A DNA stretch of 32,000 bases from an uncultured bacterium (GTDB lineage Bacteria; Patescibacteriota; Gracilibacteria; UBA1369; PNNO01). How positions within the stretch are numbered: position 1 is the first letter of the stretch; every line of letters begins with the position of its first letter. Position numbers and translations under genes: made by a program. Shown piece by piece: positions 5,723-24,682 of the stretch. The notes below the pieces were generated by a model that saw nothing but the letters and a program-made list of their open reading frames with translations, had not been told where the DNA came from and did no database searches. The stretch is from NCBI GenBank assembly GCA_963704705.1, contig OY969931.1:1260001-1292000 (forward strand), read 5' to 3'.

Positions 5723-6985
5723 ATGCATAAGAAAATCACCCTTCCAAATAATTTAAGAATTATCACTGAAAAACAAGAAAGCACAAAGGCGGTAACAATC
5801 CTTATTCTTGCCGGTGCAGGCTCGCGATACGAATCAAAAGATATTTGCGGGATCTCGCATTTTCTTGAACACATGTTTTTTAAAGGAGCAAAAAAATTTA
5901 AAAATACCAAAGAAGTAAGCGAAGCAATTGATTCTATAGGTGGAGATTTCAATGCGTTCACAGGCAAAGAATATGCTGGTTATTACGTTAAAGCCGCCAG
6001 CGACCAAATAGAAGTTGCTATGGATGTTCTTTCAGACATGCTTCTTCACGCACGTTTCGATCCAAAAGAAATCGATAAAGAACGCGGCGTGATTCTGGAA
6101 GAATACAATATGTATCAAGATACCCCTATGTATCAAATAGGATGGGATTTTGAAAAACTTGTATTTGGCGACCAGCCGCTGGGCCGCGACCAAATCGGCA
6201 CTCCGGAATTTATAAAATCCGTGACTCAGGAGCAGTTTCAAACTTATAAAAACAAACTCTACACGCCCGACAATATAGTATTAACATTGGCTGGTGATAT
6301 TGATTATGACAAAATGATGCCGCTTCTTGAAAAATATTTCGCATTCGAAAACGAAGCAAAATCATATAATTTTGACCCATACAAAAAGCCTGAGAATAGC
6401 CGTAAAATCTATCTTCATGAAAAATCCACAGAACAAGCGCATGTTGTTGTGGGCGGCCAATCCTACAAAGAAACTCACCCAATGCACTGGGCTGAAAAAC
6501 TTCTCGCAGTAATTCTCGGCGGAAACATGAGCTCACGAATGTTTCTGAATGTCCGCGAAGCAAAAGGCCTTTGTTATTACATAAGTACAAGCGCTGACAA
6601 TTTTATTGATACTGGAATTTTTTCAACCAGCGCAGGTGTTAATGTTGATGGAATTGATGATGCAGTCAAAGGAATCCTCGTTGAATACTCAAAAATCCGC
6701 GAAGATCGCGTTGATGAAAAAGAGCTGCAAAAAGCCAAAAACTTCATGAAAGGCAAAATGGTTCTTCGCCTCGAAGACTCAGAACAGCAAGCTCACATCC
6801 TCGGCAAATACGAACTTTTGCACGGCAGAATCATGACATTAAAAGAAATAATGGACGAGCTCGATAAAGTAACCATAGACCAAATCCAGCAGGTTGCCCA
6901 AGACATTCTTGCACCTTCGAATCTGCACATCGGAGTTATCGGCCCTTACGGAGATGCTTCGCGATTTGAGAAAATGCTTAATTAG
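5723..6985 (+). CDS. M16 family zinc metallopeptidase (pitrilysin-like)
   Basis: Inverted zincin motif HFLEH near the N-terminus. The ~420-aa two-lobed length is typical of M16B peptidases. Confidence 0.85.
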   Translation: MHKKITLPNNLRIITEKQESTKAVTILILAGAGSRYESKDICGISHFLEHMFFKGAKKFKNTKEVSEAIDSIGGDFNAFTGKEYAGYYVKAASDQIEVAMDVLSDMLLHARFDPKEIDKERGVILEEYNMYQDTPMYQIGWDFEKLVFGDQPLGRDQIGTPEFIKSVTQEQFQTYKNKLYTPDNIVLTLAGDIDYDKMMPLLEKYFAFENEAKSYNFDPYKKPENSRKIYLHEKSTEQAHVVVGGQSYKETHPMHWAEKLLAVILGGNMSSRMFLNVREAKGLCYYISTSADNFIDTGIFSTSAGVNVDGIDDAVKGILVEYSKIREDRVDEKELQKAKNFMKGKMVLRLEDSEQQAHILGKYELLHGRIMTLKEIMDELDKVTIDQIQQVAQDILAPSNLHIGVIGPYGDASRFEKMLN

Positions 6986-7406
6986 ACCACAAATACGGCC
7001 ATTTATAATATCTATCAACCAAACCTGCCTTAACAGGATTATTCAAGATATACTTTTTTACTCTAGCCAATTCAATCCCTACATTTACTTCTTTGTGACA
7101 AAATCTTCCCTCGAAAACATGACCTGTATGATTCCTTGTTCTATTAAAATATCTTGCATATGAATACTGTAAAACCTGACTGAATTTTGAAATATTTTTA
7201 GCAAAATGATCGCTTCTTAACAAGATATGAAAGTGATTTGGCATCACACAACCCACTTGAGTTTCAATCAAATACTTTTTTGCAAATTGACTTATTTTAA
7301 ACAAAAAAAAGCGATAATCCTGGTCGTCTCTGAATATTAACCTTTTAGAAACAGCTCGATTATAAATATGATAGTACGTATTTTTTCGCAAAGAAGGATA
7401 CCTCAT
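6978..7406 (-). CDS. IS200/IS605-type Y1 (HUH) transposase, REP-associated tyrosine transposase (RAYT)-like
   Basis: 142 aa. Contains YYHIYNRAV.., the HUH motif in PNHFHILL, and C-terminal YILNNPVKAGLV characteristic of the Y1_Tnp family. Its 3' end overlaps the convergent M16 gene by 8 nt. Confidence 0.75.
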   Translation of the reverse strand: MRYPSLRKNTYYHIYNRAVSKRLIFRDDQDYRFFLFKISQFAKKYLIETQVGCVMPNHFHILLRSDHFAKNISKFSQVLQYSYARYFNRTRNHTGHVFEGRFCHKEVNVGIELARVKKYILNNPVKAGLVDRYYKWPYLWSN

Positions 7407-7641: not shown

Positions 7642-8220
7642 ATGAACACAACCGACCTTTCCGAGAAGGTCCAGCAGGAAATAATTGAGGAGTTCAAGAA
7701 TAACCCCGACGCGTTCGAAAAAATTTACAATTTTTACTACGAGCGCATCCTCAAGTATTTACTTAAAAGGACCGCTTCAGCTGAGGCCGCATACGACCTC
7801 ACAGCTGACACCTTTATAAAAGCGTTCGAGTCATTTCATAAGTTTAAATGGACCGGCATTTCTGTAAAAGTCTGGCTTTACCGCATTGCAATAAATGCAT
7901 TGAAAAACCACAGAAGAAAGCCACAAAGCCAAGTTCTTACTGCTGAGATGGAAGGCATGGAAATCCTTGCGACAAATGCAAAAGAAGAACTCGAAGAATT
8001 AGACAAGGCAATGCACGGAGACGAAGACCTAAGCAAGCTGAGTGATGCAGTGGCAACTCTAAATCCAAAATATCAAAACATAGTTTCTCTGCATTATTTC
8101 GAAGGAATGTCACACAAAGAAATCGCGCACACAATACAAAGATCAGAAAGTGCAGTTAAATCAATGATGCACAGAGCACTTGAAAATTTACGTCAATTAT
8201 TAGCAACTAACACTATATAA
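7642..8220 (+). CDS. ECF-type sigma-70 family RNA polymerase sigma factor
   Basis: Region 2-like AAYDLTADTFIKAFESFHKFKWTGISVKVWLYRIAINALKNHRRK and region 4 HTH-like LNPKYQNIVSLHYFEGMSHKEIAHTIQRSESAVKSMMHRALENLR. 192 aa. Confidence 0.85.
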   Translation: MNTTDLSEKVQQEIIEEFKNNPDAFEKIYNFYYERILKYLLKRTASAEAAYDLTADTFIKAFESFHKFKWTGISVKVWLYRIAINALKNHRRKPQSQVLTAEMEGMEILATNAKEELEELDKAMHGDEDLSKLSDAVATLNPKYQNIVSLHYFEGMSHKEIAHTIQRSESAVKSMMHRALENLRQLLATNTI

Positions 8221-8222
8221 CA

Positions 8223-11200
8223 ATGGAAAATAACTATACAAACAGGAAGGTCGACCGTATTGAGGTCGATAAGTCCCAAAAATATCTCTGGAAGTATATC
8301 CAGGAAAAAAAGCATCTTGGCCTTAGCCAGCAAACAGCAAAAGCCAAAAAGGCGCATAATTCTTCTTGGTTCACGCCTAAAAAGTTTGCTTGGCTAGGAA
8401 CAATTGCGGCGCTCACAATTATTGCTGTTCTTGTCGTGCCAAATCTGCAAAATTTACTAAAAGGTGACATTACCGGCCAATCGATGATTGCAAATGCGCA
8501 TTTTACAATGACCGCAGACTCGCAGGATTCAGCCGGAATCGACAGCAAATCTTCTTTCACGCTCACCTCTGATGTTGATTTGGATGCTGCGTTGATTGAA
8601 GCGAATTTGGAATCGCTGCCAACCATTGATCTTAATGTTACTAAGATTGAAGCAGGAAAATATAAAGTGGAACCAGCGCAAAATCTTGAATCAAATACTA
8701 TATATAACTTCACGATCACAAGTGTTAATGAAGGCAAAACCGAAGAATTCAGCTGGGCTTATCAGGTTAAAGATGAATTTAAAATTTACGGATCAATGCC
8801 GGGTGACAAAACAACAAGCGTGCCTATTAATAGCGGAATCGAAATCGCATTCTCGCATGAAAATTACGACACAGAACAAGTAAAAAATTATTTTGAAATT
8901 TCACCTGCAACCGAAGGTTCATTTGAAAAACACAACAGAGTATTGGTTTTTGTTCCGACAAAAGGCTTAAATCCAAGCACAATTTACACTGTAACCGTTA
9001 AAGCAGGTTTACCTTTAAAAGATTCAGATAAAAAACTCGCTGAAGATTTCTCATTCAGTTTTGAAACTTCTAATGTAAGTTCAACAGGCGGTACAAACTT
9101 TTATTTTAATCAGGATTATTACGAGATCGGCACAAACATGCCGGTTGCAATGGGAGCTGCATGGTATGGCATGACTGATGAAGCAACTGACAACACTGTA
9201 AATGTTAAAATCCACAAATTTAAATCTGAAGAAGATTACATAAAAGTAGTTAAAGAGCGAAACGAAATTCCTTCATGGGCTCGCTATGCAAAAGAGAATT
9301 ACGCTTACAATCGTGATCAAATGAATTATATGGGTGAGTTCGACGGCACCATTGAAGAAATTGAATACAGCAAATTTATTTATGTCCCAACTGCCCAGCT
9401 TGAGCCTGGATTTTACCTGTTCACAGCCCAAAACAACGATAAAGTTTCAACCACACTGGTTCAGATCACTGATCTTTCAAGCTATATCAATCTTACAAAA
9501 GACGGCAATTTGGTTTGGGTAAATGATGTTTCAACAGGACAGCCTGTTAATAACGCAACTGTTGAATTATTGGATGAAAATAAATCAATCAAAACAAATG
9601 CAGATGGTATCGCTACATTTAATATGGATTTCTCAGATACTGGAAGCATTATTATAAAAGTCACTTCTCCTGACGGAAAAGTTCAGATTTCAAACTTATA
9701 TATTAATGAATACCAAAAAGAAGCAGCGAATTTAGCTGATTACTGGTATACATTTACAACTGACAGACCAGTTTACCAGCCCAGTGATACAATAGAATTC
9801 TGGGGCTTCTTAAAGCCTAAATCAGGCGACACGCAGGTTGGTGAAATTAAGGCTGAATTATATCAGGGTGGATATTTCTGGAACCTCGGAACTTATAGCG
9901 AAGAAGTTATCGCTGAAAAAGGCAATAACAATACTTTCCATGGAAATCTAGAAACTCAGGATCTGCCACCGGGTTATTACACACTAAGTATATATAATGA
10001 CGACGAGTTAATTTCGCAGGAATATATTGAAATTGTCAGTTATGCAAAACCTTCATATCAAATAGATGTGACAACTGATAAAAGAGCTATTTTCTACGAT
10101 GAAAAAATCAAAGTTGATATTATAAGCAGGTTCTTTGATGGTACGCCTGTGCCATTCCTTAAACTTTATTATAATGTTGCAGATCAGCTTACCACTGATG
10201 CAAACGGCAAATACAGTTTTGAATACACTCCTAAATCAGACTTTTATTGTTCTGATGACGGGCAATCTTGCGAAAATTTTCGCAATGAATATTTAACTTT
10301 TGATCCGGTTCCAAAAGAAGATTCCATGATTTCGGGTAAAGCCAATGTTAGGGTTTTCAAATCGCGTATTGCAATTAAAGCTAAGACTAAAACTGAGAAC
10401 AATATTGCGAATGTAAAAATCACAACTAATAAAGTTGATTTAACACCTTTAAATGAAGATGAAAACGCAGGCTACAACGATTACCTGGGAGAAGCAGCGC
10501 CAAATAGAGATATCAAAGGAAAACTAATTGAATTTTGGTGGGATAAAATCGAAACCGGTGAACATTATGATTTTATAAATAAAATTACAGTTAAAGAATA
10601 CAGATATGAAACCAGAGAAAATATTGTTGGCGAAATAAGTCTTTCTTCAGATGCAAACGGTGAAGCAGAATATAATTTTGAAATGCAGCCAAATAAACAT
10701 TACAGAGTAGTTCTAAATGCTGCTGATGATCAGGGTAAACTTTCTCATACAACCGCTTACGCTTATGGCAAAACAACAAACAATGATGAGTACAAAAGAA
10801 TAAAAATATTAAATTCAGAAGAAGAATACGGCCCTTATAAATTTGAGCTTGGCAAAGCAGTTGAAACCGCGATTGTTGCGCAGGACAGCGTTATCACACC
10901 TAAAGAGAATGAAAAATACTTATTCATGCAGCTAAATAACGGCTTAACCGAATATGCTGTTAAAGCCAGTCCTACTTACAACTTCACCTTCAAGCAGGCG
11001 CAGGTTCCTGGTGTTAGAGTTGAGGGCATAATTTTCACAGGTAAATATTATGAAACTGTGTGGGGTGATACTGTTATGTATGATCCAAAAGAAAAAACAA
11101 TTAATGTTGAGGTAAAAGCTAACAAAGATACTTTTGAACCCGGCGAAAAAGCCACTTTAACAGTTAAAACAACAGACCTAAACGGAAAACCTGTTTCAGC

Positions 11201-13544
11201 TGAAGTTCTGCTGGATCTTGTTGATGAAGCTTATTATGAACTCTTCTGGGATTCGCTTGAAAATCCATTGGACGAACTTTATAGATTTATTAATGACGGA
11301 GTTTATTCAACTTACAGCACGCATGAAAATCCAATGGTAAAAACAGAAGGAGGTTTAGGCGGATGCTTTAAAGAAGGAACAAAAATATTAATGGATGATA
11401 TGGGTTATAAAAATATTGAAGATATCGAAGTTGGTGATTTTATTACAACAAAGGAATCTGCCTTATCTGACCGTTTTGTTAAAGCAAAGGTTCTTAAATT
11501 GCAAAAGCACACTGTTAGCGCGTATCTTGTAATTAATGAGGATTTGGAAGTTACACCTGAACATGTTGTGTTTGTTAACGGTCATTTTGACCTGGCAGGC
11601 AAAGTTAAAGTTGGCGACACTATGCTGGATAAAGACGGTAATTCAATTGAGGTATGGGGTGTGCGCAAAGTTTATGAGCCAACTAAAGTTTATAATTTTG
11701 AAGTTGAACACTACCACACTTACTTTGCAAATAATTACTATGTTCATAATGACAAAGGCGGTGCGCGAAGCGAATTTAAAGACACTGCTTTATTCAAATC
11801 TGTAACTACAAACGGCAGTGGTGATGCGCAAATTACTTTCGAACTTCCTGATAACATTACCAGCTGGCGTGTTACAGCGCTTGCAATTGATTCGGATCAA
11901 ATACGTGCGGGTCGTGGCGGCGGCAACATAATTGTAACTAAACCGTTCTTTGCAGACCTTGTAATGAACAAAGAATATTCAATAAAGGACGAACCTAATA
12001 TTGGCTTAAGAGCATACGGAAAAGAAATAACAAAAGACGACAATGTTACCTTTACTGTTGGAGACGATGTAATTAACGGCAAAGCTTATACAGCTGTTGA
12101 TTACAAGCTTCCTAAACTTGAACTTGGCGAACATGAACTTAGACTTGATGCAAAATCAGGCAACTACGAAGATGCGCTAATTGAAAAATATGAAGTTGTC
12201 GGCTCTCGCCTAAAACAGACTAATGTTGAAATTTTACCTACCGTAACCGAAGAAACAGACTTCCCAATGCCGAGTGAAGGCTATGCGAAAGTTTACTTCT
12301 TAAATGCCGGACTTGCAGGCCACTACGGACAATTACTTTCACTTTATTATACAAATGGCGAACGACTTGACCAAAAATTATCAGAACAAATTGGCAAAGA
12401 TTTAATTAATGAATATTTTGATTTGGGATTTGTTGATAGAACGGTTTTTGATCCGGCAGATTATCAAAATTTTGATGGCGGATTAAAACTACTTCAATAT
12501 GCTGACCCTGATTTGAAATTAACAGCCTTGGCAACTGCTGTTGATCCAAAAGATAACAGGTTTTCAAAAGCGAGTCTTAAATCATATTTCTATCAAAAAT
12601 ATATGGATAAAGACGCAAATCTCGAAGAAGTTGTTCTTTCATTACTTGGATTGGCCAGTATTGATGAGCCTGTTCTTCAAAGTCTTCAAATCATAAAAGA
12701 TGAACCAAAATTAAGCCTGGAAGATAAAATTTATATTGGTCTTGCATTTGCCGAACTTGGAAGCAAAAACGATGCATCACAAATTTATAATGAAGTTAAA
12801 GGTTCGTTTATGAATGATAACCCTGACCAGACCGCTCTTGGAACAGTGCTTGCTGCTGCGGTTGGAGAAAAAGACGATGCATTCAAATACTGGGAATATG
12901 TGGGACGAAAACAGTTAAAAGATGATATTCCAAACATTTATTTAATGGGATATTTAAAATATTCATTAAAAACAGCTGACCCTGACAGTGTTAAGTTTAC
13001 GGCACGAATCGGCGATACTGAAAAAGAAGTCGAGCTTGATAAATGTGAAACTTTCAACACTCTTGCAAGCAGCTTTAAAGGTTTAAGTGTTGCAAATGTT
13101 GATGGCGATTTGGCTGCGGTTGTTGTGTACGACGAAGCAATTGAACCAAGTGAATTTAAAAGATCCGATATAATAAATATTAGCAGGTCATACAAAGTTA
13201 ATGGCGTAGAAACAACCGATTTTACCGAAGGTGATTTGGTTGAGGTAAACCTTGCAATAAATTATTCAGGTGAAGGCGACGCTTACTTCCAAATTACAGA
13301 TGTGCTGCCTAGCGGACTTAAAATATTAAGCAGTTCAGGTGCACCATTTGGAACAAATGGCCAGGAAGTTTTCTATGGCTGGTCTACCAAAACTCCGCGA
13401 AACATAAGTTATTATGCAACTGTTGTTAATAGCGGTAAGTTCTATGCTGACCCAGCGCGAATATCAAAATATGATGACTGGGAAATCGCAAATATATCTG
13501 AACCTGTATTTATAACAATTTCGAGTTATAATGAGGCCCCATAA
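8223..13544 (+). CDS. membrane-anchored alpha-2-macroglobulin-like giant surface protein (thioester motif absent) with inserted Hint domain
   Basis: The ATG lies 2 nt after the sigma stop. A ~55-aa N-terminal cytoplasmic segment precedes one TM helix (FAWLGTIAALTIIAVLVVP). Ig-like repeats follow, then an MG-domain signature TDRPVYQPSDTIEFWGFLKP. The A2M-family signature is RSEFKDTALFKSVTTNGSGDAQITFELPDNITSWRVTALA, and the C-terminus carries ITDVLPSGLKILS. The protein has only 4 Cys and none sits in a CxEQ context. Confidence 0.75.
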   Translation: MENNYTNRKVDRIEVDKSQKYLWKYIQEKKHLGLSQQTAKAKKAHNSSWFTPKKFAWLGTIAALTIIAVLVVPNLQNLLKGDITGQSMIANAHFTMTADSQDSAGIDSKSSFTLTSDVDLDAALIEANLESLPTIDLNVTKIEAGKYKVEPAQNLESNTIYNFTITSVNEGKTEEFSWAYQVKDEFKIYGSMPGDKTTSVPINSGIEIAFSHENYDTEQVKNYFEISPATEGSFEKHNRVLVFVPTKGLNPSTIYTVTVKAGLPLKDSDKKLAEDFSFSFETSNVSSTGGTNFYFNQDYYEIGTNMPVAMGAAWYGMTDEATDNTVNVKIHKFKSEEDYIKVVKERNEIPSWARYAKENYAYNRDQMNYMGEFDGTIEEIEYSKFIYVPTAQLEPGFYLFTAQNNDKVSTTLVQITDLSSYINLTKDGNLVWVNDVSTGQPVNNATVELLDENKSIKTNADGIATFNMDFSDTGSIIIKVTSPDGKVQISNLYINEYQKEAANLADYWYTFTTDRPVYQPSDTIEFWGFLKPKSGDTQVGEIKAELYQGGYFWNLGTYSEEVIAEKGNNNTFHGNLETQDLPPGYYTLSIYNDDELISQEYIEIVSYAKPSYQIDVTTDKRAIFYDEKIKVDIISRFFDGTPVPFLKLYYNVADQLTTDANGKYSFEYTPKSDFYCSDDGQSCENFRNEYLTFDPVPKEDSMISGKANVRVFKSRIAIKAKTKTENNIANVKITTNKVDLTPLNEDENAGYNDYLGEAAPNRDIKGKLIEFWWDKIETGEHYDFINKITVKEYRYETRENIVGEISLSSDANGEAEYNFEMQPNKHYRVVLNAADDQGKLSHTTAYAYGKTTNNDEYKRIKILNSEEEYGPYKFELGKAVETAIVAQDSVITPKENEKYLFMQLNNGLTEYAVKASPTYNFTFKQAQVPGVRVEGIIFTGKYYETVWGDTVMYDPKEKTINVEVKANKDTFEPGEKATLTVKTTDLNGKPVSAEVLLDLVDEAYYELFWDSLENPLDELYRFINDGVYSTYSTHENPMVKTEGGLGGCFKEGTKILMDDMGYKNIEDIEVGDFITTKESALSDRFVKAKVLKLQKHTVSAYLVINEDLEVTPEHVVFVNGHFDLAGKVKVGDTMLDKDGNSIEVWGVRKVYEPTKVYNFEVEHYHTYFANNYYVHNDKGGARSEFKDTALFKSVTTNGSGDAQITFELPDNITSWRVTALAIDSDQIRAGRGGGNIIVTKPFFADLVMNKEYSIKDEPNIGLRAYGKEITKDDNVTFTVGDDVINGKAYTAVDYKLPKLELGEHELRLDAKSGNYEDALIEKYEVVGSRLKQTNVEILPTVTEETDFPMPSEGYAKVYFLNAGLAGHYGQLLSLYYTNGERLDQKLSEQIGKDLINEYFDLGFVDRTVFDPADYQNFDGGLKLLQYADPDLKLTALATAVDPKDNRFSKASLKSYFYQKYMDKDANLEEVVLSLLGLASIDEPVLQSLQIIKDEPKLSLEDKIYIGLAFAELGSKNDASQIYNEVKGSFMNDNPDQTALGTVLAAAVGEKDDAFKYWEYVGRKQLKDDIPNIYLMGYLKYSLKTADPDSVKFTARIGDTEKEVELDKCETFNTLASSFKGLSVANVDGDLAAVVVYDEAIEPSEFKRSDIINISRSYKVNGVETTDFTEGDLVEVNLAINYSGEGDAYFQITDVLPSGLKILSSSGAPFGTNGQEVFYGWSTKTPRNISYYATVVNSGKFYADPARISKYDDWEIANISEPVFITISSYNEAP
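11364..11750 (+). other. Hint (mini-intein / bacterial intein-like) domain embedded in the A2M-like ORF, residues 1048-1176
   Basis: Starts with Cys (TGC 11364-11366) in CFKEGTKILMDDMGY (block A-like). Contains LEVTPEHVVF (TxxH, block B-like) and VYNFEVEHYHTYFANNYYVHN (block F/G-like, ending His-Asn at 11745-11750). At 129 aa there is no room for a homing endonuclease. The +1 residue is Asp, and the flanks are Gly-rich (EGGLGG / DKGG). Confidence 0.8.
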
Positions 13545-13555
13545 CTTATAATATT

Positions 13556-14182
13556 ATGAAGAAATTTATAGTAACAATACTTGCGTTAAGCCTTTTAACA
13601 GCTTGTAATTCTCCGGCACAAACTACCGAAGGCACTCAGGAATTAAATATTGATCTTGCTAAAATACAAATGCAGATTCCATCTAATTTGCATATCGAGA
13701 TTCAGCGAAAACCTAATTCGGAACCAAGAATATATGTTGTTTTAGGCGAAGAATATTACACAAACGGAGAAATAAACCCATTGATAAGATTTACAATTGA
13801 AGAAAAGAATTTTGAGGAATGGATGACTGAAAACTGGGATGCTCCTTTCTACCCTCTTGAAAATTCATGTGAGGTTGAAAAGCCGATGATAGGTGAAATT
13901 TTCGGTTGTGAACAATCCGCTGATAACATTACCTCATACTATCAAACCAATAAAATGGGTGAATTGAGTGCTGTTAAAAAATATTATTTTGAACGTGAAG
14001 GAAATGATTGGCCGAAAATTGAAATTTGGGTTGATCTATACACTGATGATTTCAAAGAAAAACTCGGACCAAATCCAACTTATGAATCAATGAAAGCAGA
14101 ATTTGCAAAATTGCAGCTTACTGCAGAGCAAAAACATCGCATTAAATTAGCTGAGGATATTATAAAATCGATGAAATATTAA
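13556..14182 (+). CDS. predicted lipoprotein, function unknown
   Basis: MKKFIVTILALSLLTAC has a lipobox (L-T-A-C). It starts 11 nt after the A2M-like gene on the same strand. Confidence 0.65.
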   Translation: MKKFIVTILALSLLTACNSPAQTTEGTQELNIDLAKIQMQIPSNLHIEIQRKPNSEPRIYVVLGEEYYTNGEINPLIRFTIEEKNFEEWMTENWDAPFYPLENSCEVEKPMIGEIFGCEQSADNITSYYQTNKMGELSAVKKYYFEREGNDWPKIEIWVDLYTDDFKEKLGPNPTYESMKAEFAKLQLTAEQKHRIKLAEDIIKSMKY

Positions 14183-14227
14183 TTACTAAGTAATTGGTAC
14201 TTACTAAGTAACCCCGCCTTACTAAGT
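14181..14227. repeat. three copies of TTACTAAGT phased at exactly 18 bp, with palindromic cores
   Basis: Copies lie at 14183-14191, 14201-14209 and 14219-14227. Copy 1 sits in a 15-bp perfect palindrome AATTACTAAGTAATT (14181-14195) that overlaps the lipoprotein stop codon. Copy 2 sits in TACTTACTAAGTA (14198-14210, 6-1-6 palindrome). Confidence 0.7.
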
Positions 14228-14238
14228 GGGGTTATTTT
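14209..14238 (+). terminator. possible intrinsic terminator of the sigma/A2M/lipoprotein operon
   Basis: Stem TAACCCC (14209-14215) pairs with GGGGTTA (14228-14234), a 12-nt loop contains repeat copy 3, and TTTT follows. The large loop makes it weak. Confidence 0.4.
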
Positions 14239-14244
14239 ATATAC

Positions 14245-14272
14245 TTGACTTTTTTATAAATTATGTTAGAAT
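14245..14272 (+). promoter_or_regulatory. sigma-70-type promoter with extended -10
   Basis: TTGACT (14245-14250), a 16-nt spacer, then TGtTAGAAT (TG 14264-14265, TAGAAT 14267-14272). It points into the leader of the Cys-rich ORF. Confidence 0.5.
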
Positions 14273-14431
14273 TTACATCTTGCCCTTTAAAAACTACGAT
14301 TATTCGTAGCTTTGGAGTAATCCAAGTTAAAAGTCCTATCCGTTTTCTTTATGAATGATGGAGAGGCTTTAAAATGGACCTCTCTAAAGCTATTTGCTTA
14401 CAACCCACACCCATTTAAGGAGGTGACACAC

Positions 14432-14659
14432 ATGTCGATGCATCAGCAGACCGAGCTATCCCTGGACGCCCAGACCGTGCACGACCTCATCAAGGGCACA
14501 CTAACGGACCTCGTTTGCCAGGACTCCGAGTTCTGTGACGAGCCGGATCCCTGCCCACTGACCGGCCACCCCAAGGAGCAGACGCCGAAGCGCAAGTGCG
14601 ACGCGTGTATGGACTACTCCTGCGATAACCACCCCATCAACAACTGCCATAGCAAATAG
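14432..14659 (+). CDS. small Cys-rich protein (75 aa), unknown family, compositionally foreign
   Basis: AAGGAGGTG (14417-14425) lies 8 nt before the ATG at 14432, which is in frame with track ORF 14351..14659. The product is MSMHQQTELSLDAQTVHDLIKGTLTDLVCQDSEFCDEPDPCPLTGHPKEQTPKRKCDACMDYSCDNHPINNCHSK, with 7 Cys. By hand count, 63 of 75 codons end in G/C and the first 60 nt are 60% GC, in an AT-rich genome. A terminator hairpin follows. Confidence 0.6.
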   Translation: MSMHQQTELSLDAQTVHDLIKGTLTDLVCQDSEFCDEPDPCPLTGHPKEQTPKRKCDACMDYSCDNHPINNCHSK

Positions 14660-14672
14660 AACGAGAGGGATC

Positions 14673-14707
14673 GGCTCGGCTGACTTTACATCAGCCGGGC
14701 CTTTTCC
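14673..14707 (+). terminator. intrinsic terminator after the Cys-rich ORF
   Basis: GGCTCGGCTGA (14673-14683), loop ctttaca, then TCAGCCGGGCC (14691-14701). This is an 11-bp stem with one G.U pair, followed by TTTT (14702-14705). It abuts the stop of the convergent DUF134-like gene. Confidence 0.65.
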
Positions 14708-15165
14708 TAATTATTGGCATTTCCGCGACCTAAACCGCGTCCTTGCCCGCGGCCAGGACCGCGACCCTGTCCTCTAGCCAAAGGTTTTTGCTGCATAGGC
14801 TTTTTTGCTCCTTCGCATTTTCCATATCCTCTGCCTGTCATTGGACCTTTGCCTTCCGGACCGGTACCATCAAGATTTGGCATGTTATTTATTGTTAAGA
14901 TTTTAATTGCTTGTCCTTTAAATATTGCTTTCGCAACTTTGTGCCGACCCGAATTTACCATTCTGCAAATTGTCGGTTTTGAAATATTCATTTCTTTTGC
15001 GGCTTCATCCATATTCATATTTAGATAATCAACAAGGCGCATCGCTTCAACTTCATCTTCAATTAATTCAACTTCTTCAAGGTTCCTAAGAGGGATTCCC
15101 TGCGGTTTATAATAATTTACCTTAAGCTCATTGGTTATTCTTCTAAGTTTTTTTAAAGGCGGCAT
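14707..15165 (-). CDS. DUF134 (UPF0251) HTH protein fused to a DUF5320-like segment with a C-terminal Arg-Gly repeat tail
   Basis: YYKPQGIPLRNLEEVELIEDEVEAMRLVDYLNMNMDEAAKEMNISKPTICRMVNSGRHKVAKAIFKGQAIKI matches the DUF134 pattern as I recall it. MPNLDGTGPEGKGPMTGRGYGKC matches the DUF5320 pattern. The tail is RGQGRGPGRGQGRGLGRG. Confidence 0.7.
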   Translation of the reverse strand: MPPLKKLRRITNELKVNYYKPQGIPLRNLEEVELIEDEVEAMRLVDYLNMNMDEAAKEMNISKPTICRMVNSGRHKVAKAIFKGQAIKILTINNMPNLDGTGPEGKGPMTGRGYGKCEGAKKPMQQKPLARGQGRGPGRGQGRGLGRGNANN

Positions 15166-23515: not shown

Positions 23516-24682
23516 TCAATCCACGGCTTTAACAAATTTCCACCTCCGAAGCAACCATGAGAAAAGAAGAGGAACAATAAATTTAAATACAATACTTGAA
23601 GCAATTATAACTGAAAATAAATCAGAACCAATCACTTCTGCTTCATAAAGTATTTTGATTATAATAATACTTGTGCTGAATCTTACAGATAAGCCAATCC
23701 CCAGTAAAACAGATTGTTTAACTCCGAGCTCTTTTCTTCCCATTATATAACTGCCCAATAACTTTGCACTGTTAGATACAGCTACAACTAAAAGTACAAG
23801 CAGCGGAAATTGGATTAGATAATGAACATCCATTTCAAGACCTACCTGCAAAAAGAAAAGTGGTGCAAAAAACCCGTAGCACATGGTTTTTATTTCACTG
23901 TCAATTAACTTGAGCCTATCTTCCGGCACAAATGTTTTAATTGCTAACCCGGCAAGTAACGCTGCCACAGGCATTGAATGTGCAAATTCGCCAATCCCCA
24001 AAAACAAAAAGAATATAAATAAAGAAAAAAGAAATATGATATTTACAGATAGATGCATAAATTTTATCCCTCTTCTGCGTAAAAAGGTCATTCCAAAAGA
24101 TAATCCAAACAATAACGCCAAAGAACCAAGCACAGAAATAATATCAAAATTGGTTGTAGAATTTTTCATTAAAAAAACCACCATTATTAAGGTAATTAAT
24201 TCAATGATGTCATCAAGAGTGCCGATTCCAAGTATACTTTGTCCGAGTTTTGTATTTATTATTTTGAATTCATCCAGAATAGGAATTAAAATCGCCTCTC
24301 CTACTGTTGCAAAAGATAAAGATACAACAAATGAAACAAACCATTCATAACCGAATACAAAATGAATTAATAATGTCCCGACAATTCCTTCAAGAAATAT
24401 TATAAAAAATGTTGATTTAACAATAAACTTACCCGACTTTTTAAGCTTAGATAAATCCAATTCAAGCCCAATCATAAACAAAAGAAAGTACATTCCGAGT
24501 TTTGCCAGAAAATCAAAAGTCTCACTCGAAGTAATTTCAATAAAAGGGTTATAAAAAGCCAAAACAGCGCCTAAAAGCAATGCCGCGAATACCCATGGTA
24601 CCCGTACTTTTTCAATAATTCTTCCCAGGACAAATGTAAGAAGAAAAACTAAACTTAAAAATAAAAAAATATTAAACATCAC
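23516..24682 (-). CDS. cation:proton antiporter (CPA2 family), paralog B
   Basis: 388 aa, colinear with and clearly similar to 20584..21750 (for example YNPFIEITSSETFDFLAKLGMYFLLFMIGLELDL, FATVGEAILIPIL, IGIGTLDDIIELITLIMV). Confidence 0.8.
   Translation of the reverse strand: MMFNIFLFLSLVFLLTFVLGRIIEKVRVPWVFAALLLGAVLAFYNPFIEITSSETFDFLAKLGMYFLLFMIGLELDLSKLKKSGKFIVKSTFFIIFLEGIVGTLLIHFVFGYEWFVSFVVSLSFATVGEAILIPILDEFKIINTKLGQSILGIGTLDDIIELITLIMVVFLMKNSTTNFDIISVLGSLALLFGLSFGMTFLRRRGIKFMHLSVNIIFLFSLFIFFLFLGIGEFAHSMPVAALLAGLAIKTFVPEDRLKLIDSEIKTMCYGFFAPLFFLQVGLEMDVHYLIQFPLLVLLVVAVSNSAKLLGSYIMGRKELGVKQSVLLGIGLSVRFSTSIIIIKILYEAEVIGSDLFSVIIASSIVFKFIVPLLFSWLLRRWKFVKAVD

Follow-up and report, generated by a model that had tools for sequence, protein, structure and literature searches.

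What keeps one small gene rich in G and C within a genome that is otherwise rich in A and T, and what is the role of the strong Shine-Dalgarno (SD) sequence placed in front of it? The question is raised by a stretch of 32,000 nucleotides, referred to here as the window, from the AT-rich, 1.37-Mb genome of an ultra-small bacterium belonging to Candidatus Peribacteria, in the candidate phyla radiation (CPR). The window contains an open reading frame (ORF) of 75 codons plus the stop codon at positions 14432 to 14659 (+ strand), encoding an acidic, hydrophilic, Cys-rich product. Purifying selection acts on this small ORF, which is a true protein-coding gene. It belongs to an autonomous, lineage-restricted cassette, which spans approximately positions 14183 to 14708 of the window and whose ORF measures 71 to 75 codons, and it is the only gene with an SD sequence seen in these SD-scarce genomes, among about 50 genes examined. 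The evidence that its GC-richness is held by selection on composition or codon class, acting on this one gene, is strong but not conclusive.

The GC content of positions 14401 to 14707 was 58%, against 35.8% over the full window. Measured over 200 nt at a time, it passed from 0.29 to 0.33 outside the region to 0.60 to 0.61 at about positions 14400 to 14700 and then went back down, the change being abrupt at both ends. The only segments of the 32 kb that exceeded the mean by more than 3.5 standard deviations were those of positions 14401 to 14707. Thus, the GC island in an AT-rich genome that had been pointed out in a reading made from the letters of the DNA (the sequence-only reading) is real, and it is the sole island in the window. 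The GC contents of the small ORF at the three codon positions (GC1, GC2, and GC3) were 0.55, 0.38, and 0.84, respectively, with G or C at the third position of 63 of the 75 codons, exactly as that reading had counted, and with the enrichment at position 3 that it had described. The GC3 values of all the other window ORFs of at least 100 amino acids (17 or more neighboring genes) ranged from 0.20 to 0.42. An index similar to the codon adaptation index, calculated with 7,824 neighbor codons as the reference, was 0.42 for the small ORF and 0.60 to 0.77 for every neighbor, so that its codon usage is indeed atypical. U accounted for just 15% of its mRNA.

Three lineages bearing the cassette were compared, namely, the window, L001 (with L002), and L017, with L004 to L006 as the nearest outgroup. 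L001, L002, and L017 are JGI metagenome contigs, and L003 is an independent Logan assembly of the window organism. The window ORF and its L001 orthologue shared 74% of their amino acids and 81% of their nucleotides, and the differences fell on codon positions 1, 2, and 3 in the numbers 15, 5, and 22. The ratio of nonsynonymous to synonymous substitution rates (dN/dS) was 0.22, with a dS of 0.66 to 0.70, comparable to the values of the neighboring genes (0.37 to 2.3). Among the six frames, just that of the ORF was free of stop codons in both the window and L001, and it was there that omega was lowest (0.22). The third positions of the ORF are also those of one antisense frame, which for this reason has a high GC3 as well, and which is partly open; an antisense ORF was rejected, given that this frame contains stops and shows a higher omega.

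A search of 5.8e9 clustered proteins yielded a sole homologue of the small protein, P0001 (74% identity), encoded at L001. It lies at the same place in this 161-kb contig, where the gene order is an extracytoplasmic function (ECF) sigma factor, a 1,773-amino-acid alpha-2-macroglobulin (A2M)-like protein, a lipoprotein, the cassette, and then a convergent DUF134-DUF5320 gene. A third, more distant member (46 to 54% identical) was found in L017 by a degenerate DNA search for the motif CDEPDPCP, a scan that rendered 11 matches, of which that in L017 alone was real. The L017 copy has the same flanks, promoter, leader, SD sequence, and terminator; the cassette is therefore found at one and the same site, with the same order and signals, in the window, in L001 and L002, and in L017. 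For their part, L004 to L006 lack the whole unit of ∼500 bp, the lipoprotein and DUF134 genes having their stop codons 3 nt apart. The identities of the M16 peptidase to that of the window were 0.97 for L001, 0.83 for L017, and 0.75 for L004, which places L004 outside the three carriers. The simplest reading is that the cassette was gained once by the ancestor of a small clade, or else that L004 lost it.

No further homologues were obtained from the 5.8e9 clustered proteins, either with a single sequence or with a word-based search using a profile of the three sequences. The matches of a HMMER profile in 1.84e9 representatives were long repeat proteins with many weak stretches and proved spurious on inspection. 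Likewise, there were no homologues in GTDB genomes (protein-pattern scan), in scans of viral contigs, or in phages or plasmids (tblastn); the Pfam, NCBIfam, PHROGs, PADLOC, and PDB searches with the protein came back empty; and a metagenome scan with a 20-nt word from the leader gave no match. Loci with homologues of the DUF134-DUF5320 gene in other lineages (L007 to L010 and L023 to L025) showed different, nonsyntenic neighborhoods and no cassette. The sequence-only reading had recognized no family, in agreement with protein and profile searches that are empty outside the clade, and the homologue search that it had proposed led to P0001 at L001 and to L017, with nothing beyond the clade.

The gene has largely escaped annotation. 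None of the start variants of the window ORF (ATG at 14351, 14432, or 14438 and GTG at 14423) was found in a collection of 15 billion proteins, and the L017 ORF (positions 1947 to 2162) was missing from it as well. The ORF was not called in the Logan copy L003, and the JGI call for L001 is the only public annotation. Two of the three family members are thus unannotated in public records, and it may be that callers trained on the host genome systematically overlook genes of such atypical codon usage.

The compositional contrast is a property of the gene in all of its carriers. GC3 was 0.84 in the window, 0.88 in L001, and 0.92 in L017, against 0.26 to 0.46 in the flanking genes, and the contrast persists at a protein identity of 46 to 54%, with the highest value in the most diverged copy. 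The leaders of the cassettes have a GC content of 35 to 41%, and the contrast thus lies inside the inserted unit. The neutral process was estimated with a general time-reversible model from 1,574 4-fold sites of 10 neighbor gene pairs (window versus L001), which resulted in an equilibrium GC content at 4-fold sites (GC4) of 0.32 and a distance of 0.65 substitutions per site. Starting from an ancestor with 100% GC, this model predicts a GC4 of about 0.70 after the time since the split of the window and L001 and of about 0.60 after that since the split of L017. The observed values were 0.83, 0.93, and 0.96 for the window, L001, and L017, respectively (P = 8e-3, 1e-4, and 1e-5 against 0.60). The composition of the ORF, with a GC4 of 0.83 to 0.96 where at most 0.60 to 0.70 is expected, is therefore not decaying to that of the host at the neutral rate.

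This is not a matter of frozen sites, since the 4-fold p-distances of the ORF (0.44 and 0.58) were similar to those of the neighbors (0.42 and 0.52). Rather, exchanges between C and G made up 5 of 11 and 4 of 7 of the 4-fold differences, against an expected share of 7.5 to 8% (P = 8e-4 and 1e-3), a 6- to 7-fold overrepresentation, and T was almost absent. The 2-fold codons followed the same pattern, with C-to-T ratios of 21:6, 22:3, and 16:2 in the ORF versus 586:1302 in the neighbors and G-to-A ratios of 13:1, 12:3, and 16:3 versus 449:1337. Because the sites turn over at the rate of the neighbors yet stay G or C, the GC-richness appears to be actively maintained. Two explanations for this maintenance were discarded. 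Translational selection, which gives highly expressed genes their usual codon bias, was rejected, GAG, AAG, and CAG being favored over the A-ending codons, and the idea of a Rho utilization site, suggested by an excess of C over G, was dropped, as the skew is lost in L017 and there is nothing downstream to regulate. Selection on genic G+C content that is independent of codon adaptation has been demonstrated experimentally (Kelkar, Phillips, and Ochman, 2015; PMC4478552; also previous E. coli studies to which that paper refers). The likeness consists in G or C being favored at synonymous sites against AT-biased mutation, in a manner unexplained by host codon preference; the difference is that the published cases are genome-wide trends or experimental variants in GC-rich or GC-neutral hosts, whereas here it is one gene of 75 codons in a genome of ∼36% GC.

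The second anomaly is the SD sequence. Positions 14417 to 14425 (+ strand) read AAGGAGGTG, an SD-like sequence with exceptionally strong predicted pairing. The sequence-only reading had placed a consensus SD sequence 8 nt before the ATG; the consensus-like element is present, but the spacing is 6 nt. The duplex energies, computed with a canonical 16S rRNA 3′ tail instead of that of this organism, were −17.8 kcal/mol for the window, −15.9 for L001, and −9.5 for L017. The best pairing among 53 other genes of the window, L001, L004, and L017 was −6.8 kcal/mol, and most were weaker than −3. None of the 25 other genes of the window showed an SD match longer than 4 nt, in line with the earlier remark that its neighbors have no obvious SD sequence. 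AGGAGG occurs six times in the window, as expected by chance, and a start codon follows just one of these copies, that at 14418. GAGGTG is kept in the window, L001, and L017. The upstream regions of the other Peribacteria genes (53 genes) were A/T rich rather than SD bearing. No rRNA gene was found in the window or in the compared loci by an Rfam scan.

The SD sequence is preceded by an AT-rich 5′ leader of about 150 nt (positions 14279 to 14431, + strand; 35% GC), the start of which was deduced from the −10 element. Over the block that starts with the −35 element and closes with the hairpin, 149 of 155 positions (96%) were identical between the window and L001, two organisms for which the genome average is 84% and the neighbor 4-fold sites are 58% identical. 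The leader folded better than its shuffled versions in the three lineages (z = −4.2 in the window, −3.5 in L001, and −2.8 in L017). Independent predictions in the three leaders gave a conserved imperfect hairpin, which in the window has 86 nt (positions 14307 to 14392, + strand) and a ΔG of about −33 kcal/mol. Across the lineages, it measures 86 to 89 nt, with −33 to −36 kcal/mol, and comprises the helices P1 (11 to 12 bp), P2 (4 bp), and P3 (5 bp) and a variable apex. The sequence of P1 is almost invariant, P2 shows a change from A-U to G-C that is compensatory in an unbiased alignment, and the apical helices differ in sequence among lineages with retention of pairing. Statistically, the support for conservation of the hairpin by compensatory change is not firm, although it is suggestive. 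When 141 kb of related DNA was scanned with a covariance model built on the hairpin, only the three known copies were recovered.

A CA-rich linker (14399 to 14416) separates the hairpin from the SD sequence. The 5′ arm of the hairpin contains the SD-like UUGGAG(G), and the 3′ arm contains ACCUCUCU, which resembles an anti-SD sequence and whose predicted pairing with the SD region amounts to −10 to −11 kcal/mol in all three lineages. The 5′-proximal CUUGCnCUUUAAA is also predicted to pair with the SD region (−6 to −9 kcal/mol); this pairing appears in the consensus fold and, among the minimum-energy folds, in that of the window only. Such alternatives would make possible a switch between a closed hairpin with a free SD sequence and a state in which the anti-SD-like segment covers it. 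Leaders that sequester the SD sequence, such as riboswitch platforms, RNA thermometers, and ribosomal-protein leaders, are likewise long, conserved, and structured and carry an anti-SD-like segment; in contrast to them, the cassette leader matches no Rfam family, and its predicted stable state is the hairpin with the SD sequence free. A leader peptide (upstream ORF at 14351) is unlikely, since the in-frame AUGs run into a stop in L001 and there is no AUG in L017. An integron attC-like reading of the hairpin was dropped, as neither an integrase nor R′/R″ core sites were present and the hairpin comes ahead of the ORF.

The sequence-only reading had described a fully equipped unit, and both of its predicted ends were recovered by scans. 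A σ70-type promoter is predicted at positions 14245 to 14272 (+ strand), with the structure TTGACT-16-TAGAAT, a TG extension, and 10 of 12 matches; alignment showed that it is conserved in L001 and L017. An intrinsic terminator at positions 14666 to 14708 (+ strand), obtained by scan and fold, has an 11-bp stem (14673 to 14701; 8 GC pairs) and a T-run TTTT. The stem is extended by GAGAGG/UUCCU pairing. The terminator, which ends where the convergent DUF134-DUF5320 gene has its stop codon, is kept with compensatory variation in L001 and L017. Upstream of the promoter, positions 14183 to 14229 hold three direct repeats of TTACTAAGT (also written TTACTNAGTAA) with an exact 18-bp spacing, each lying at the center of a near-palindrome, TTACT-A-AGTAA. 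These are the only exact copies of TTACTAAGT in the window, and the third of them forms the loop of the terminator of the upstream gene (14206 to 14237). Palindromes with the same 18-bp periodicity occur at the same place in L001 (9748 to 9783), with the symmetric changes TCACTCGGTGA and TTACTCGGTAA, and L017 has a single repeat copy adjoining the −35 element (∼1729 to 1740). The repeats resemble an operator for a dimeric DNA-binding protein and are candidates for such a role.

The encoded proteins have a mass of 8.2 to 8.4 kDa and a pI of 4.6 to 6.5 (4.9 in the window) and are hydrophilic, with no predicted signal peptide or transmembrane segment. Three portions are invariant, namely, an N-terminal amphipathic segment (Q..V..LI..TL), CDEPDPCPxTGxPK, and CxxCxDxSCxxxPxN. 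The Cys residues of the window protein are at positions 29, 35, 41, 56, 59, 64, and 72, as already listed from the sequence; five of them (35, 41, 56, 59, and 64) are invariant, with the spacing C-x5-C-x14-C-x2-C-x4-C, and Cys29 and Cys72 are not conserved. AlphaFold2, run with a two-sequence alignment, gave an uninformative model (predicted local distance difference test score, 42) with a helix at residues 13 to 30 only. WhiB-like [4Fe-4S] proteins (PF02467) carry the motif Cys-x14-22-Cys-x2-Cys-x5-Cys, with a G[VI]WGG turn and a basic tail behind it. The small protein resembles them, as well as zinc-binding anti-sigma factors such as RsrA and metallothioneins, in size (70 to 110 amino acids), in being cytoplasmic, in its clustered Cys residues, including C-x14-C-x2-C-x4-C, and in the ECF sigma genes nearby. 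Membership in each of these families was rejected. The order here is C41-x14-C56-x2-C59-x4-C64 in an acidic protein with no GVWGG, and there were no WhiB-like hits in Pfam (E ≤ 1) or NCBIfam (E ≤ 10). The H-x3-C-x2-C motif of the anti-sigma factors (zf-HC2, PF13490) is missing, no member having a His at −4 from C56, and there was no Pfam match. For metallothioneins (PF02069 and similar), there was again no Pfam match, and 5 to 7 Cys in 71 to 75 residues represent a content of 7 to 9%, well below that of these proteins. No sequence match was found in the PDB at permissive thresholds. A thiol-based Zn, Fe-S, or redox role may be proposed from the Cys spacing, a tentative assignment that we regard as possible rather than probable. 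Of the options named in the sequence-only reading, a metal-binding or redox protein and a small regulator are both plausible.

Four other explanations of the locus were weighed against that of a maintained cassette. The abrupt change of composition at both ends of the island would be expected of an assembly chimera or a contaminant insertion, against which the sequence-only reading had cautioned. A sequence identical to that of the window, with identical flanks, is present in the independent assembly L003, and diverged orthologous copies with the same flanks occur in the three JGI contigs L001, L002, and L017, which come from different samples; moreover, the divergence of the ORF runs parallel to that of the flanking genes. 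Misassembly is excluded by this recurrence of the junctions, and we assign the chimera a negligible probability. A GC-rich structured noncoding or dual-function RNA, with the ORF incidental or secondary, was also considered. In AT-rich genomes, RNA genes classically show up as GC islands, the 5′ part of the transcript is structured, and the antisense frame that shares third positions with the ORF is partly open. However, the RNA of the ORF region has no advantage in folding over sequences shuffled by dinucleotides (z = −0.41 for the window and z = −0.77 for L017). Rfam gave no match at the gathering score in the window and only chance-level matches at E ≤ 10 (Rfam 15; window 14150 to 14800 and L017 1700 to 2285), and neither tRNA nor tmRNA was found in a scan of the region. 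In addition, the GC enrichment is limited to codon position 3, the dN/dS of 0.22 is found in the sense frame alone, the antisense frames have stops, and the synonymous sites switch freely between G and C, a poor fit to a conserved fold. The structured-RNA reading was accordingly rejected as very improbable, and the statement of the sequence-only reading that the island is a real coding sequence holds.

The most serious competitor is a passive relic of horizontal gene transfer (HGT) from a high-GC, SD-using donor, of which GC3 and the SD sequence would be functionless leftovers. Both are atypical for the host, and the absence of the cassette from the outgroup L004 is consistent with gain. Horizontally acquired genes are said to drift to the base composition of their host, the amelioration concept of Lawrence and Ochman. 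The small ORF is like such genes in its atypical composition and codon usage, its patchy distribution, and its orphan protein; it differs from them in that no drift to the host composition is seen across three lineages despite synonymous turnover at the rate of the neighbors, the differences being mostly between G and C, with T nearly absent, and the highest GC3 in the most diverged copy. The foreign codon usage from a high-GC donor that the sequence-only reading had favored also lacked support on two other grounds. No donor homologue is known among the 5.8 or 1.84 billion proteins, the GTDB genomes, the phages, or the plasmids, and the insertion that brought the GC-rich ORF also comprises an AT-rich promoter and leader of 35 to 40% GC. 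GAGGTG has been retained in all three lineages. Other Peribacteria have 58.5% GC (PMC4736985), but the GC-rich Peribacteria are SD scarce themselves and would not supply an SD sequence. The relic is thus unlikely. Less likely still is a precursor of a ribosomally synthesized and posttranslationally modified peptide (RiPP), that is, a helical leader peptide plus a Cys/Asp-rich core cross-linked by a maturase encoded elsewhere, in the manner of ranthipeptides, sactipeptides, or lanthipeptides. In favor of the RiPP-like option of the sequence-only reading is the layout of a small and acidic protein, in which a conserved amphipathic N-terminal helix (V..LI..TL..F/L) precedes a C-terminal half rich in Cys, Asp/Glu, Asn, and Pro. 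On the other hand, there is no maturase among the about 26 genes of the window, as that reading had itself remarked, or the 19 of L001 (radical SAM/SPASM, LanM, or YcaO), nor are there LanB/C, peptidase, or ABC exporter genes for such a system in the 32-kb window or the 20-kb L001 locus. No precursor family, models of SCIFF/ranthipeptides such as TIGR03973 included, matched either of the two proteins tested in NCBIfam or Pfam at E ≤ 10. The double-glycine motif is not conserved, only 5 of 7 Cys are conserved, the cassette is monocistronic with its own terminator, and the genome has just 1.37 Mb. We consider this reading improbable.

The explanation that we prefer is that of a cassette of maintained GC content, gated by its SD sequence, for a metal or redox protein; as a whole, it has in our judgment about an even chance of being right. 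The product would be a small cytoplasmic protein binding metal through thiols (Zn or Fe-S) or active in redox reactions, a part held with moderate to low confidence. Expression of the cassette would be set apart from the default of the host, the SD-independent translation of A/U-rich mRNAs, in that initiation would depend on SD:anti-SD pairing. The leader hairpin could act as a gate: with the ACCUCUCU 3′ arm on the SD-like 5′ arm, the SD sequence would be free and the gene on, and with the same arm on the real SD sequence, the gene would be off. The U-poor, GC-rich coding region would stabilize or insulate the mRNA, and the protein could then be produced strongly yet conditionally. Three conserved features of the cassette depart from what is typical of the host, namely, the GC-rich synonymous sites, the exceptional SD sequence, and the structured leader. 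We infer that the maintained GC content of the small ORF is neither the fading signature of a donor nor a specific RNA fold.

Several points weigh against this explanation. Transcription, translation, and metal binding are all deduced from sequence alone. The neutral-model tests use small numbers of sites (12 to 29 4-fold sites) and a simple model. The three members of the family include two close relatives, so that there are effectively two independent sequences, with one clean compensatory pair in the hairpin, and the anti-SD pairing is part of the minimum-energy fold for the window only. The structure prediction failed, and the metal or redox assignment accordingly comes from the Cys spacing by itself. 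Candidatus Peribacter riflensis is listed as SD scarce, with 7% SD genes, and is reported to have no conserved CCUCC in its 16S rRNA (PMC10783764). If the present lineage also had no CCUCC, the "SD" sequence could not act via the ribosome and would have another role. Finally, SD scarcity is also observed in L004, which is without the cassette; the protein is therefore not the cause of the SD-independent ribosomes.

A precedent for the kind of control proposed is rpsU in the SD-blind Flavobacteriales, which has a lone extended SD sequence (below −13 kcal/mol) and whose translation falls preferentially to ribosomes that have their anti-SD sequence free (PMC9976891); specialized translation of rpsU, encoding bS21, is also the subject of PMC7797042 and PMC13000453. 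The likeness lies in an SD-scarce genome (here, none of 53 other genes), one exceptionally strong SD sequence, and its conservation in relatives. With the canonical 16S tail, the window (−17.8 kcal/mol) and L001 (−15.9 kcal/mol) go beyond the −13 kcal/mol mark, and L017 (−9.5 kcal/mol) falls short of it. The differences are also clear. The product here is an acidic, Cys-rich orphan and not the basic ribosomal protein bS21, and the phylum is another (CPR). The lone SD sequence has been established among about 50 genes instead of a whole genome, and neither GC-rich recoding nor a long leader hairpin has been described for rpsU. No ribosomal-protein family in Pfam or NCBIfam matched the small protein, which is thus not identified as bS21; the analogy is one of mode of control, not of family membership.

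The surroundings of the cassette include two ECF sigma factors, envelope proteins, and ion transporters, with no direct functional link to it. The ECF sigma gene at 7642 to 8220 directly precedes the gene for the A2M-like protein (8223 to 13544, + strand; 1,773 amino acids; Big_5, bMG3, and A2M domains), which has an internal Hint/PT-HINT (intein-like) segment at residues about 1047 to 1180 (GGCFKEGT…VHNDKGG), kept in L001 and L004. Downstream, the gene at 14707 to 15165 (− strand) encodes a fusion of a DUF134 (UPF0251) helix-turn-helix with DUF5320 that ends, at its C terminus, in an Arg/Gly-rich tail, GRGPGRGQGRGLGRG; the part coding for this tail gives rise to a second, smaller GC bump at 14707 to 14800. 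Homologues of this protein in other lineages adjoin Fur/Zip, FeoB, or ArsP genes, and this adjacency hints at a metal-related regulator. An IS200-like Y1 transposase gene (Y1_Tnp; 64% identity) is found at 6978 to 7406 (− strand) in the window, 1760 to 2197 in L001, and 463 to 906 in L017, its position being conserved in the three cassette carriers; L004 has an Na+/H+ antiporter gene instead. L001 contains an extra, divergent lipoprotein paralogue (9074 to 9748; 35 to 39% identity to the others) and, separating the cassette terminator from the DUF134 stop codon, about 230 bp of additional AT-rich spacer with small hairpins (10240 to 10455). Farther downstream in the window, paralogous 388-amino-acid Na+/H+ exchangers at 20584 to 21750 (+ strand) and 23516 to 24682 (− strand) flank, in inverted orientation, a CitMHS/TrkA_C transporter gene, and together with nearby MgtE, cation-chloride cotransporter, and MatE genes they make up an ion-transport cluster.

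The small ORF provides a natural example of one gene whose synonymous sites are GC rich against a strong AT mutational bias, and it bears on the old question of whether base composition is shaped by selection and, if so, on what property that selection works; with 75 codons, it is small enough to be recoded and tested. Little is known of how ultra-small bacteria regulate their genes, and to this repertoire the locus adds an orphan family of small proteins with five conserved Cys residues, as well as a conserved leader hairpin of no known class. A bolder version, in which the cassette would be a private translation channel, active only when a 16S anti-SD sequence or a subpopulation of ribosomes is available, strikes us as doubtful and well short of probable. 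In it, a single nonribosomal gene of an SD-independent CPR bacterium would combine the extended SD sequence with a leader hairpin made of mimics of SD and anti-SD sequences and with a U-poor, GC-rich coding region kept so by selection. If true, it would be a second, independent natural case of specialized ribosomes or SD gating, this time outside Bacteroidota and in combination with selection on the synonymous GC content of a single gene. That this GC-rich gene also has the only SD sequence seen in these SD-scarce Peribacteria genomes suggests that SD pairing may serve CPR bacteria as a selective switch and not as a general signal, as is the case for rpsU in Flavobacteria.

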